A DNA stretch of 64,000 bases. It comes from Patescibacteria group bacterium (GTDB lineage: Bacteria; Patescibacteriota; Minisyncoccia; Phycocordibacterales; PALSA-1337). Under the pieces are notes generated by a model that saw nothing but the letters and a program-made list of their open reading frames with translations, was not told the origin of the DNA and did no database searches. The first letter of the stretch is position 1; the number at the start of each line of letters is the position of its first letter. Where the stretch lies: positions 8,865-72,864 of the forward strand of contig JBBTTD010000002.1 in assembly GCA_038064415.1 (NCBI GenBank), written 5' to 3'. Shown piece by piece: positions 3,712 through 63,965 of the stretch. The translations under genes and the position numbers were made by a program.

Positions 3712-4791
3712 CTAATTAACCCACTCAACTTCACCCTCAATAGCAATCCCAGTTTTTTCTTTTACTCGTCCCATCAAGTTGCGCGCGAAAGCGACAACTT
3801 CTTCTGATGTCGCGCCGGATTTGGAAACTAAGACTAAAGCATGTCTTTCATAAGTCCCGACATTTCCAATAGTCAAACCTTTGGCATCGCAAATTTTATC
3901 CAAGATCCATCCAAGAGAAACTTTAATTCGTCCATCTGGTTCGGAAAAACCGGGAAGATCGGGGTATTTTTTCGTCAGTTCGGCAAACTTATCCATAGAA
4001 ATTATCGGGTTTTTGAAAAAAGATCCAGCTGTTCCCCACTTTTTCCAGTCTGGTAATTTGATTGCGCGGATTTTAATTACAGCTTGCCGTACTTGATCTA
4101 GAGTCGGCATAAGTGGTCGCTGAATATTTGCCATCCGATTGTCCACCCTTTTCAAAAGGTCATTATCTGAAGTCTGGAATTTATCAAAATATACCCGCAA
4201 ATCCTCATACTCAATATTTACGTTCCCGTTTTTGATAAGTCTAAAATCAACTCTAGTGATGATATAACGACCTTTTTGGCGTTTGAAAACACTATCACGA
4301 TATTCAAATTTACAGTCATCATTAGAAAAATCCACAAACTTCATTGTATTGGTGTCAAAAGCATGAACCGTCAAAATAGAACTGGAAACATCACAACCAT
4401 AAGCGCCGATATTTTGAACGGGTGTCGCGCCGACCGTGCCTGGAATTGAAGATAAATTTTCTATGCCATAAAACCCTTGTTTTACAGCATAATCAACAAA
4501 ATCGTCCCAAACTTCACCCGCGCCAACGGAAAGTAGCGAGGAGAGACCTCGCTGATCAATCCCCTTTATTTCCATCTTAATAACTAATCCAGCGAAACCA
4601 TAATCTCCAACTAAAATATTTGAACCACCACCCAACACAAAAATCGCTAACCTTTTACCTTCAGCAAACCGCACCGCTTCAACTAATTCTTCTTCTTTTG
4701 TAACCTGACAAAAAAAGCGGGCTGGGCCGCCTATTTTGAAAGTCGTATAAGACGCAAGTTTTATATTTTCCTCTATTTTAATCATTGTCAT
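3712..4791 (-). CDS. murB: UDP-N-acetylenolpyruvoylglucosamine reductase (MurB)
   Basis: 359 aa. FAD-binding N-terminal region (YTTFKIGGPARFF...VLGGGSNILV) and a MurB C-terminal domain. Confidence 0.85.
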   Translation of the reverse strand: MTMIKIEENIKLASYTTFKIGGPARFFCQVTKEEELVEAVRFAEGKRLAIFVLGGGSNILVGDYGFAGLVIKMEIKGIDQRGLSSLLSVGAGEVWDDFVDYAVKQGFYGIENLSSIPGTVGATPVQNIGAYGCDVSSSILTVHAFDTNTMKFVDFSNDDCKFEYRDSVFKRQKGRYIITRVDFRLIKNGNVNIEYEDLRVYFDKFQTSDNDLLKRVDNRMANIQRPLMPTLDQVRQAVIKIRAIKLPDWKKWGTAGSFFKNPIISMDKFAELTKKYPDLPGFSEPDGRIKVSLGWILDKICDAKGLTIGNVGTYERHALVLVSKSGATSEEVVAFARNLMGRVKEKTGIAIEGEVEWVN

Positions 4792-49806: not shown

Positions 49807-49859
49807 AAATGTACATTACTACTGTTAAGACAGAAAGACAATGACTGCTCTATATTATA

Positions 49860-49961
49860 CGAGGTATGGTACATGAATTTCATAGGAGTTGTGCTGTATC
49901 ATCAACGAAAGTAATGTGATGGAACAACACAATTCCTATGAAATTCATGTACCATACCTCG
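49860..49961. repeat. Long inverted repeat (34-bp arms, one G-U position, 34-nt loop) in a divergent intergenic region
   Basis: Arm CGAGGTATGGTACATGAATTTCATAGGAGTTGTG (49860-49893) pairs with CACAATTCCTATGAAATTCATGTACCATACCTCG (49928-49961). One position pairs only as G-U, which hints at RNA-level structure. Confidence 0.6.
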
Positions 49962-50008
49962 TATTAAGATGCTTGCGTACTTTCATTCTACAGATTAGAC
50001 TGTTTTGC

Positions 50009-55170: not shown

Positions 55171-56634
55171 ATGACAAAAAATTCTGTTCAAAAAATACCC
55201 GCGCACCTCCACATCATCGGCATCTGCGGTGTCGCTACTAGTGCCTTGGCAATTGCTTTTCACAAGAAGGGCGTAAAAGTGACCGGAAGCGATAAGGGAT
55301 TTTTTCCTCCAGTTTCAATTGAATTAGAGAAACAAAAAATTGAGTTCTACGCTGGTTGGCATCCAGAAAAGATGGTCGCGAATGGTAGACCGGATACTAT
55401 TATAATCGGCGGTGGCGGAACTAGTCCTTCAAATCCCGAAATTATTTACGCCAAAGAACATAACATTTCTGTTTATTCATACGCGGAAATTCTACAAAAA
55501 TATTTCATCAAAAAAAATTCAATCGTTGTGACAGGAACCTGGGGAAAAACAACCATTTCCGCCATGCTTTCATTCGTTCTTTTGAGAGCCAAAATGGATC
55601 CAAGTTATTTTACCGGCGGACTTTCACTTTCTCATGATACCGGCGCGTTGTCCGATTCAAATTGGAGTGTGGTTGAAGGCGATGAATATCAAGTTTCAAT
55701 TTCTGATCATAGACCAAAATTTGTCTACTATTCCCCTACTTATCTAATTTTGACTTCAGTGTCTTGGGATCATGCTGATTTATATCCAACAGAAAAGGCA
55801 TATTTTGATGAATTCAGAAATTTAGTCAATAAAATTCCAGAAAATGGAAAAATCGTTGCTTGTATTGATAATGATGGAGTGAAAAAAATTATTGGAGACA
55901 AATTAGAATCTGGCGAAAGAATCATTACTTATGGAAAAACTGCCGGTACAAATTATCAATATGATTCAGTCATTCCGACAAAAAATGGCTTGGATTTCAT
56001 AATTGAATCAGCGCGGGGTAGACCAGCGCACGCGTCATTCAAGATTCACTCGCCAATGCTCGGTCGCTTCAATGCTGAAAATATCACCGCAGTATTCGCT
56101 ATGGCTAGTGAAGTTGGGATCAAACCGGAAAAAATAATCAAAGCTATTGCTGAATTCAAAGGAATAAAACGCCGATTTGAGAAACGGTTTGAAGGTGAAA
56201 TAACCGTCATGGATTGTCACGCTCCAACTCCCGAAAAAGCAGCATCGGTGTTGGAAAATATCAAAGAAGTATATAAAAATAAAATAATCGCGGTTTATGA
56301 ACCGAATATCGGCGGACGACAAAGAAGTTCCGCAGGAATGTATGATGGCGCCTTTAAAGATGCTGATATCGTGATTGTCCCGCGATTAACAAAACTAAAG
56401 ATTGAGCGAGGTCCGACCTCGCTAGCGAGGTCCGACCTCGCTCAAAAACCTCTGGAGGGCGATGAATTGGCGCGAATTATTGGTAAAACACACACCAATG
56501 TCCACTATTTAGCAAATGATGAGGATCTAGTCACATTTTTGAAGTCAGAAGCAAAAAGAGGTGATATGATCGCCTTTCTCGGCTCACATGGCTTCAGGGG
56601 AATGATTGAGGAGACAGTAAAAAAATTCCAATAA
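55171..56634 (+). CDS. Mur ligase family: UDP-N-acetylmuramate--L-alanine ligase (MurC) or Mpl-type ligase
   Basis: N-terminus HIIGICGVATSALAIAF...VTGSD is MurC/Mpl-type. P-loop VVTGTWGKTT. The C-terminal domain carries the inserted palindrome. Confidence 0.75.
   Translation: MTKNSVQKIPAHLHIIGICGVATSALAIAFHKKGVKVTGSDKGFFPPVSIELEKQKIEFYAGWHPEKMVANGRPDTIIIGGGGTSPSNPEIIYAKEHNISVYSYAEILQKYFIKKNSIVVTGTWGKTTISAMLSFVLLRAKMDPSYFTGGLSLSHDTGALSDSNWSVVEGDEYQVSISDHRPKFVYYSPTYLILTSVSWDHADLYPTEKAYFDEFRNLVNKIPENGKIVACIDNDGVKKIIGDKLESGERIITYGKTAGTNYQYDSVIPTKNGLDFIIESARGRPAHASFKIHSPMLGRFNAENITAVFAMASEVGIKPEKIIKAIAEFKGIKRRFEKRFEGEITVMDCHAPTPEKAASVLENIKEVYKNKIIAVYEPNIGGRQRSSAGMYDGAFKDADIVIVPRLTKLKIERGPTSLARSDLAQKPLEGDELARIIGKTHTNVHYLANDEDLVTFLKSEAKRGDMIAFLGSHGFRGMIEETVKKFQ
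56402..56445. repeat. 44-bp GC-rich near-perfect palindrome (tandem 20-bp units) inserted in-frame in the Mur ligase gene
   Basis: TTGAGCGAGGTCCGACCTCGCTAGCGAGGTCCGACCTCGCTCAA matches its own reverse complement at 42 of 44 positions. ~60% GC against a ~35% background. It encodes ERGPTSLARSDLAQ. Confidence 0.6.
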
Positions 56635-57801: not shown

Positions 57802-57809
57802 CAGTGAGA

Positions 57810-57921
57810 AACAAAGCAAGAAGCGGGTGTGAATTTTATGAAAGACTGCAATCTCTTTGCGTGGAACGCGAGACAATTATAACGGTCTTTCATAAAATTC
57901 ACACCCGCTTCTTGCTTTGTT
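57810..57921. repeat. 37-bp perfect inverted repeat (38-nt loop) exactly between convergent stop codons; candidate bidirectional terminator or structured element
   Basis: Arm 57810-57846 (AACAAAGCAAGAAGCGGGTGTGAATTTTATGAAAGAC) is the perfect reverse complement of 57885-57921. It is flanked by the PALP gene stop at 57799-57801 and the murD stop at 57930. Confidence 0.6.
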
Positions 57922-57929
57922 ACTATTTC

Positions 57930-63892: not shown

Positions 63893-63965
63893 TGCGCGCA
63901 CTAGGATTCGAACCTAGGACCCCACCAGTATCAGTGGTGTGCTCTACCAACTGAGCTATGCGCGC
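63893..63965 (-). tRNA. tRNA-Ile (anticodon GAT)
   Basis: The reverse complement folds as a cloverleaf: acceptor GCGCGCA/TGCGCGC, D-arm GCTC-AGTTGGTA-GAGC, anticodon arm CACCA-CTGATAC-TGGTG (anticodon GAT, A37), variable loop GGGTC, T-arm CTAGG-TTCGAAT-CCTAG, discriminator A. No CCA is encoded. Confidence 0.85.

Follow-up and report, generated by a model that had tools for sequence, protein, structure and literature searches.

What does a GC-rich, near-perfect palindrome of 44 bp do inside the reading frame of a Mur ligase gene, and how did it come to be there? The gene lies in a stretch of 64,000 nt from contig JBBTTD010000002.1 of a Patescibacteria group bacterium (assembly GCA_038064415.1, positions 8,865 to 72,864), which will be called the window. 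The original prediction, made from the letters of the window alone, had described a compositionally foreign, tandem palindrome inserted in frame in the C-terminal domain of the ligase, and the composition bears this out: GC makes up 63.6% of the 44-mer, but 37.5% of the window and 39% of the remainder of the ligase gene. In our analysis, the palindrome is probably a head-to-tail dimer of a hairpin family of the REP (repetitive extragenic palindromic) type, a family which is dispersed in Patescibacteria, flanks genes of REP-associated tyrosine transposases (RAYTs), and would be present here as a tolerated passenger of a protein loop. The features of the locus are the following:

55171 to 56634, plus strand: MurC/Mpl-like Mur ligase gene (487 aa), whose C-terminal domain has the element in a hypervariable loop, after the strand at residues 400-404 and before the helix at 430-438.
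56402 to 56445, plus strand: near-perfect palindrome of 44 bp, made of TTG, two tandem 19-nt units and CAA; it encodes (I)ERGPTSLARSDLAQ, ligase residues 411-425.
56405 to 56423, plus strand: REP-like unit 1, AGCGAGGTCCGACCTCGCT, with the 17-nt core GCGAGGTCCGACCTCGC at 56406-56422 (34.7 bits, E = 3.9e-8).
56424 to 56442, plus strand: REP-like unit 2, identical to unit 1 and in the same orientation, with its central C on the plus strand.

At the locus, ...AAG ATT G is followed by AGCGAGGTCCGACCTCGCT twice, and then by CAA AAA. A repeat search placed the arms of the palindrome at 56402-56423 and 56424-56445 (22 nt each, 95% complementary, 0 nt apart). The repeated unit had been given as a 20-mer, but is exactly 19 nt long, unit 1 being preceded by a G and unit 2 by a T. 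Each unit is self-palindromic, with 9-nt complementary arms around one central C, and the 6-bp hairpin first attributed to it has to be revised: the realistic fold of a single unit is a 7-bp stem with a 3-nt loop. Folding of the palindrome region yielded -37.9 kcal/mol as RNA (z = -6.4) and -22.5 kcal/mol as DNA (z = -6.5), and in both cases none of 200 shuffled sequences was as stable. In the best predicted structure, unit 1 is paired with unit 2 in a single long hairpin of 44 nt. Six matches to the 19-mer with up to 3 mismatches were found in the window, at 3 sites, where 0.00 are expected from 100 shuffles. Perfectly paired GC-rich hairpins (stem of at least 7, loop of at most 7, GC of at least 60%) were detected over the 64 kb at the ligase locus and at one hairpin of murB only, shuffled sequence giving 0 to 3 of them. 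The dimer leaves one frame of three open on each strand, the others being closed by a TGA at its left edge and a TAG at the unit junction. An Rfam scan of the whole window at the gathering threshold returned no match at the palindrome; its sole match in the window is a tRNA gene (63893-63965, minus strand, 73.3 bits). We conclude that the palindrome is genuine, and beyond chance.

Could it be an artefact of assembly or sequencing, such as a chimeric inverted duplication? Amplification chimeras can make palindromes, short-read assemblers break at inverted repeats, and a contig of the Logan assembly does end within two other palindromes of the window. The source contig (75,330 nt, coverage about 10) comes from the Hain_H41 metagenome of 0.1-um-filtered groundwater. 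The Logan assembly of ERR3858120 is 100% identical to it over 7,905 nt, palindrome included. Well H51 provides a sister strain (99.2% DNA identity, 3 substitutions in the ligase gene), in which the 44-mer is identical, both in the European Nucleotide Archive (ENA) assembly and in the Logan one. ENA and Logan sequences therefore agree across several runs and two wells; in addition, the open reading frame (ORF) of the ligase remains open, and in other samples, orthologous genes have inherited a hairpin of the same family (loci L043 and L109, see below). Because independent assemblies and a sister strain reproduce the palindrome, the sequencing or assembly error against which the original prediction had warned can be set aside, and we give it next to no credit. 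Contamination by an adapter or a library hairpin was rejected too, on account of the copies in orthologous genes from different studies (the same two loci), of lineage-specific compensatory variants, and of paired flanks confined to low-GC contigs.

The two other palindromes are long, AT-rich and intergenic, and their sequences are unrelated to each other and to the REP-like element. The first (49857-49964; 108 bp, 48-nt arms 92% complementary, 12-nt spacer) separates divergent genes of the TP_methylase family and of the ATP-grasp type, and the Logan contig L015 begins within it, at window position 49935. The second (57807-57924; 118 bp, 40-nt arms 98% complementary, 38-nt spacer) occupies the interval that separates a PALP-family gene (end 57801) from a convergent MurD-like gene (end 57930), and L015 stops within it, at 57839.

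The host ORF contains the N-terminal, middle and C-terminal Mur_ligase domains of Pfam, and its best NCBIfam models are murC, then mpl, both under their cut-offs. The palindrome is in frame over codons I411 to Q425 (IERGPTSLARSDLAQ), and translation through it would give peptides that contain LKIERGPTSLAR or SDLAQKPLEGDELAR. An alignment of 37 homologs places it between the conserved blocks PRLTKLK[VI] and P[LM]EGDEL, in a segment free in length and sequence. Measured between anchors of our own definition in the 120 best homologs, the loop is 1 to 17 residues long, with a mode of 8 (52 proteins), as compared to 16 in the window protein, and the peptides that the palindrome could encode are missing from all 119 others. 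Absent from 119 of 120 proteins, the element is not a structural loop conserved among Mur ligases, and the comparison of orthologs agrees on this point with what had been predicted. The closest homolog devoid of the element (P0002; 75% aa and 70% nt identity, on a syntenic contig) reads CTT GAT GAA AAT GCC ACT GAA AAA CCC in the loop, and the window ATT GAG CGA ... GCT CAA AAA CCT, i.e. 14 nt stand opposite 38 nt. The net gain is thus 24 nt, or about 8 residues, less than the ~14 added residues initially counted. An AlphaFold2 model of the ligase has high overall confidence (mean pLDDT 86.9, pTM 0.88), and the only residues whose pLDDT falls under 50 are 1-5 and 411-421, the latter being coil. 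The ligase copy is therefore a lineage-specific gain, within a hypervariable loop that is predicted to be disordered.

Is the element found elsewhere? Among the species-representative genomes of GTDB, the exact 19-mer is present at 13 loci. Nine of them are labelled Patescibacteria, Saccharibacteria or Staskawiczbacteria, and 2 more are contigs of one unclassified low-GC metagenome-assembled genome (MAG); these 11 loci have GC contents of 34-53%, while the remaining 2 belong to 66%-GC genomes. Two MAGs have two matches each. No match was found in viral contigs, and a phage link is not supported. A scan of metagenomes with the 17-nt core GCGAGGTCCGACCTCGC gave at least 119 stretches, and the family counts that follow are those among the matches listed. 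The core-bearing stretches split cleanly by composition, and more than 40 low-GC Patescibacteria contigs contain the core. In the low-GC copies (n = 42 unique), the flanking positions 1, 2 and 3 are paired in 90%, 83% and 74% of cases, with use of all four base-pair types, and pairing drops to 38% at the fourth position, whereas the flanks of the high-GC copies (n = 73) are paired at background levels (44%, 22% and 29%). With their unpaired flanks, the high-GC matches were rejected as family members, and treated as chance or ordinary coding matches. A number of them (L019, L033, L106, L113, L115, L127, L129 and L133, on contigs of 63-71% GC) have the 17-mer in a common context, ...TTCTG-A/C-A-NCC-GTC GCGAGGTCCGACCTCGC GGAT/GCAG..., which is probably a conserved coding segment of a high-GC gene family, unrelated to the hairpin family since its flanks are unpaired.

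Covariation, scored over 36 distinct low-GC copies, reached 0.319, a value attained in 0 of 500 shuffles (0.088 after shuffling), and shifting the partner by 1-3 columns abolished the signal. As flank pairing and covariation extend three positions beyond the core, the family unit is a hairpin of ~23 nt, NNN-core-N'N'N'. Its pattern is a core GCGAGGTC[C/G]GACCTCGC surrounded by three variable complementary base pairs, in search form NNN-GCGAGGTCSGACCTCGC-NNN. The outer triplets vary by lineage (att/aat, cct/agg, tgt/aca, aaa/ttt, tga/tca and others), and the copies within one contig or genome have the triplet in common (L020; L009 and L012). Diverged copies found by a covariance model are compensated within the core, with GCAAGG/CCTTGC in L032, ACGAGG/CCTCGT in L023 and L042, and GTAAGG/CCTTAC in L145, and their apex AGGTC[C/G]GACCT is invariant. 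On contigs other than that of the window, 2-4 copies can be found within a few kb of each other, and in two MAGs the matches are on two contigs. Copies within ~60 nt of a contig end were also observed (L007 25-43, L061 13-29, L099 2-18, L134 1223-1239), as expected of a repeat that breaks assemblies, and they bring indirect support for multiple copies per genome. A role as DNA-uptake sequence was rejected, the density being far too low (roughly tens per Mb at most). A full-text literature search retrieved no paper on this core sequence or on RAYTs in Patescibacteria, which is not proof of absence.

The genes found next to the hairpin in related genomes point to a transposase. In contig L020, ORF 5835-6485 matches the IS200-like Pfam family Y1_Tnp (PF01797) with E = 2.5e-8, which exceeds the gathering score, and its product has the motifs YHLYNRG, MPNHFHFLV (HUH) and YIHRNP. 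An imperfect copy of the hairpin, CCTGCAAGGTCCGACCTCGTAGG, is located 12 nt upstream of this gene, a perfect one is in frame inside it, where it encodes ARSDLA, and a third, with its centre base inverted, starts 2 nt after the stop. In L032, ORF 13052-12396 is a homolog of the former (tblastn E = 1e-26) with hairpins just upstream, in frame inside (LRSPTSQ) and overlapping the stop, and a fourth copy 350 nt away. A third homolog, in L024, is 95 nt from a hairpin copy. The proteins of L020, L032 and L024 all pass PF01797. In NCBIfam, each of them is best matched by NF047646, REP-associated tyrosine transposase, with 36-74 bits, below its cut-off of 80 bits. The motifs HUH (MPNHFH) and YIHxNP can be recognised in the hairpin-flanked genes. 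The protein family is very large, with named members from MAGs of the Parcubacteria group, Taylorbacteria, Moranbacteria and Niyogibacteria, some of which are named "REP element-mobilizing transposase RayT" by JGI; a PDB sequence search with the L032 protein gave no match at E <=0.01. We conclude that the hairpin family is structured, covarying and dispersed in Patescibacteria, and that it brackets RAYT-type genes in related genomes. By extension, a RAYT of the window organism may mobilise the element, or may have done so.

Further RAYT loci have the same arrangement, known as a REPtron in the literature, with palindromes of their own. In L145, both sides of the gene carry, in inverted orientation, CATTGTAAGGTC[c/g]GACCTTACAATG, a compensatory variant of the present core; the palindromes are CCCAAAGGactacCCTTTGGG in L140, CCCCAAGGgcggtCCTTGGGG in L142, and 34 nt long in L146. 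Members of one clade contain their own cognate hairpin in frame (L032 12858-12884, L145 at RAYT residues 56-62, L140 3160-3186 and L142 3155-3185), and the site, which follows the YHxxNRG motif and precedes HUH, is fixed at residues about 53-62. The internal hairpin varies between loci, yet agrees with the flanking copies of its own gene, which suggests a role in cis or concerted evolution; no description of this feature was found. As a separate observation, the RAYT gene of L024 (2789-2115, minus strand) is bracketed by 23-nt terminal inverted repeats (TIRs), AAAGGGGGTCAGGTACCCTTTTT and AAAAAGGGTACCTGACCCCCTTT (2790-2830 and 2100-2125), unrelated to the hairpin. This layout matches the 'TIRtron' that Di Nocera et al. 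(2013, PMC3733652) describe, along with RAYT-like genes flanked by unrelated TIRs.

The positions of the copies relative to genes were then considered, on 50 low-GC copies, with rough gene calls made by a script of our own. Thirty-six copies (about 70%) are intergenic, many of them 1-20 nt past a stop codon, and the gene ends facing copies are 33 3' ends versus 21 5' ends. The other 14 (about 30%) are inside ORFs; all six frames of the core are free of stop codons. Among the confirmed hosts are LepA (EF4, L001), which is a net 3 aa longer than the Thermus structure, UvrC (L093), a MurD-like ligase (L007), a metallo-beta-lactamase (MBL)-fold hydrolase (L105) and a helix-turn-helix (HTH) protein (L042). 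An M29 peptidase hosts a copy in two diverged orthologs (L043 and L109), and this copy is therefore vertically inherited. The original prediction had imagined a class of in-frame palindromic elements in this genome: a palindromic class does exist, but it is not specific to the genome, being spread over many Patescibacteria and associated with RAYTs, and it is in frame within genes in a minority of cases only.

These positions bear on the possibility that the palindrome is kept for a function, be it to stabilise the mRNA or block its decay, to pause ribosomes, to terminate antisense transcripts, or to bind a regulator of cell-wall genes. The hairpin is indeed very stable, many intergenic members directly follow stops, and some have A/T runs: a subfamily aaaaa-core-ttttt (L006, L010, L017, L130, L134) resembles a bidirectional intrinsic terminator. 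Both window copies, that of the ligase and the murB hairpin described below, are in peptidoglycan-synthesis genes, and the element is unchanged between the two strains. However, with strains only 0.8% diverged this conservation is uninformative, and the intragenic hosts elsewhere are functionally unrelated. At the ligase locus the terminator scan was negative: there is no T-run, the palindrome being followed by CAAAAACC on the plus strand and by CAATCTTTAG on the minus strand. Finally, the 119 of 120 orthologs that do without the element include the syntenic one. We therefore find a selected function improbable. The binding site for a palindrome-recognising regulator proposed at the outset is likewise unsupported, as no promoter was found to contain the element and the intergenic copies are mostly at gene 3' ends.

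Close to several copies, one arm of the hairpin is partially repeated in tandem. These 'stutters', with periods of 9-15 nt, were seen in L044/L070, L035, L093, L018, L111, L114 and L003 (for instance GACCTCGCACA GACCTCGCACA GAC in L044), and since they adjoin several copies, slippage at these hairpins seems to be common. Such frequent slippage would favour a purely local origin of the palindrome, by replication slippage or template switching followed by duplication, with no mobile family involved. In line with this, a 19-nt tandem duplication of A[core]T within a monomer TTG-A[core]T-CAA yields the window dimer exactly. A local origin does not account for the identical 17-19-mer in dozens of unrelated low-GC contigs, also beside RAYT genes, and a lone 19-nt duplication would have shifted the frame of an essential gene. 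For this last reason, the dimer must have arrived whole, or together with the loss of 14 nt. Taken together, a local origin is highly improbable.

The covariance-model scan of the window detected, besides the ligase dimer, only the murB hairpin:

4535 to 4553, minus strand: related hairpin AGCGAGG-tctct-CCTCGCT in murB (ORF 3712-4791, minus strand), covariance-model E = 0.018.

It shares with the ligase element the 7-nt arms and the reading frame (QRGLSSL versus ERGPTSL), and has a different apex. The sister-strain MurB (96% identical) also has it. The original prediction had counted the ligase palindrome as a second such insert in the window: a related copy is indeed there, but it is not a net insertion, as the protein aligns without gap to solved MurB. 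Because there are no extra residues relative to that structure, the murB hairpin looks like an overwritten or decayed copy. A stem CGAGG-N5-CCTCG, which is also that of the present core and of the murB copy, is contained in the GGTYGAGGTTGAGCCTCGTCA repeats that flank a Taylorbacteria RAYT (L138 about 2960-2990 and 3730-3830; L005 821-835), and this hints at a wider superfamily.

How could the element have entered the ligase gene? If it is a REP-type dimer as we propose, a RAYT would have brought a copy into the loop in the form of single-stranded hairpin DNA, or the loop would have been converted from another copy, and the incoming element would have replaced about 14 nt by 38 nt. Its survival may be due to the stop-free frame of the dimer and to a hypervariable, disordered surface loop far from the conserved motifs. 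The stable hairpin of the ligase locus, in mRNA and DNA, would then be a tolerated passenger, presumably translated through, and presumably neutral for the enzyme.

A different history can be written for the same family, in which hairpins are spread or kept by recombination, short-patch gene conversion or uptake of foreign DNA, and RAYTs merely use or attract them. It is favoured by the fact that sequence is overwritten and not just added: the element amounts to 13-15 aa and exceeds the net length gain in three proteins, 8 aa for the Mur ligase, 3 aa for LepA and 0 aa for MurB. This excess could reflect insertion with deletion, or equally overwriting of the conversion type, and the latter fits because the RAYT-internal hairpins stay matched to the flanking copies, in four RAYT lineages, suggestive of concerted evolution. 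Moreover, several co-occurring populations of one aquifer share the core. Yet the genome-specific outer triplets (L020, two CAYTAF01 contigs) and the REPtron-like layout are typical of transposase-linked families, and the loci share no donor tract longer than the hairpin. All in all, we hold spread independent of a transposase to be rather unlikely, though the least so of the rivals considered.

The excess of element over net gain also counts against the REP-type dimer spread by a RAYT, and several other observations weigh in the same direction. A RAYT gene was detected neither in the window nor elsewhere on the 75-kb contig, and the transposase link rests on other genomes. The end tags GTAG and CGTC were looked for and found in 2 and 1-2 copies of 41 respectively, with at most 0.18 bit of information in the flanks. 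Cleavage by the E. coli RAYT is reported to need a tag and an imperfect stem, as summarised in PMC3733652, whereas the present unit is an almost perfect palindrome. Copy density is low on the contig of the window organism, with 2 loci, or 3 units, per 75 kb, none of them in the remaining 11 kb, and the exact-match search explains in part, by ascertainment, why the core does not vary among loci. An empty site was sought in close relatives, but the only close strain (99.2% nt identity) has the element and the next homolog is just 70% identical in DNA, so that the exact event is not reconstructable. Target-site duplications or a conserved cleavage motif beside the element were not found.

Several known systems resemble the present one. 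The Rickettsia palindromic elements (RPEs; Ogata et al. 2000, as cited in PMC3733652) are reportedly selfish, inserted in frame in protein-coding genes, essential ones included, and translated. RPE-1 is 100-150 bp long, restricted to Rickettsia, and has no dedicated transposase. The ligase element is similarly in frame, tolerated at a surface position where the fold would be left intact and, we presume, translated; it differs by its unit of 19-23 nt, the lack of a CGTC tag, another host phylum, and its association with RAYTs, the candidate transposases. With IS200/IS605 and PATE elements, the family has in common a Y1 HUH transposase (PF01797) bracketed by subterminal hairpins, which an enzyme of this type would recognise as ssDNA, but the best family match here is the RAYT model NF047646 and not IS200, and in the solitary hairpins of ~23 nt neither a cleavage motif nor sequences of a left or right end could be detected. 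Organelles with compact, AT-rich genomes also see small GC-rich hairpins multiply, sometimes into coding regions (yeast mitochondrial GC clusters; sponge RHE, PMC2800124); being organellar, without associated transposase and of unrelated sequence, these provide an analogy only.

The closest likeness is with the REP/RAYT systems. According to Di Nocera et al. (PMC3733652), REPs are palindromic repeats of 20-40 bp that usually lie downstream of ORFs and frequently flank RAYT genes, REPtrons are described, and intragenic REPs are known in other phyla, more than half of them as dimers or groups. The present family has the short GC-rich stem-loop (19-23 nt, 9-11 complementary positions per arm), the preference for the downstream side of ORFs, copies flanking an IS200-like Y1 gene in related genomes (in inverted orientation in L020 and L145), and the same minority of intragenic copies, often peptide-adding dimers, in repair genes among others (UvrC here). 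It departs from them in several respects: it has no GTAG/CGTC tag; it is a near-perfect palindrome with one unpaired centre base; its apparent copy number per genome is low; its 17-nt core is common to distant Patescibacteria lineages instead of being proper to one species or genus; and a cognate copy lies within the RAYT coding sequence. Patescibacteria are not among the phyla named for GTAG repeats in the part of the same paper that was consulted. REPINs, which consist of two inverted REPs and a spacer and are extragenic (Bertels & Rainey 2011, PMC3116915), also fold two adjacent units as one long hairpin, of 44 nt here, but the units of the ligase abut in direct orientation inside a gene, and pair only because each is self-complementary. 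In these terms the ligase element is an intragenic dimer of REP type, and such dimers have already been described in other phyla.

A broader proposal is more tentative. Patescibacteria might possess a phylum-wide, untagged REP/RAYT system, with an apex spanning classes, a core unusually compatible with coding, essential genes included, and a cognate hairpin in each RAYT of one large clade; we find this possible, although we would sooner expect it to fail than to hold. If it were true, the hairpin would act in cis within the transposase gene, for example in autoregulation or as part of the mobile unit, and spread or maintenance would proceed by overwriting (conversion) rather than by simple insertion.

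At the ligase locus, the palindrome would thus be a passenger repeat in a disposable loop; it would be neither a site of regulation nor an error of assembly, and would not amount to a novel feature of the protein. Those who annotate Patescibacteria should expect such inserts, and contig breaks at them. The core GCGAGGTC[C/G]GACCTCGC with its 3 complementary base pairs offers a handle for counting elements and tracing exchange among co-occurring populations, and the near-perfect hairpin a minimal substrate for RAYT biochemistry. The mechanism at the locus is itself ordinary; the lead is rather the family, with its Patescibacteria-wide apex, its tolerance in coding sequence and its cognate hairpins within the transposase gene. 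The highly reduced genomes of Patescibacteria, usually called poor in mobile DNA, host hairpin families of the REP/RAYT type that reach into coding sequence.

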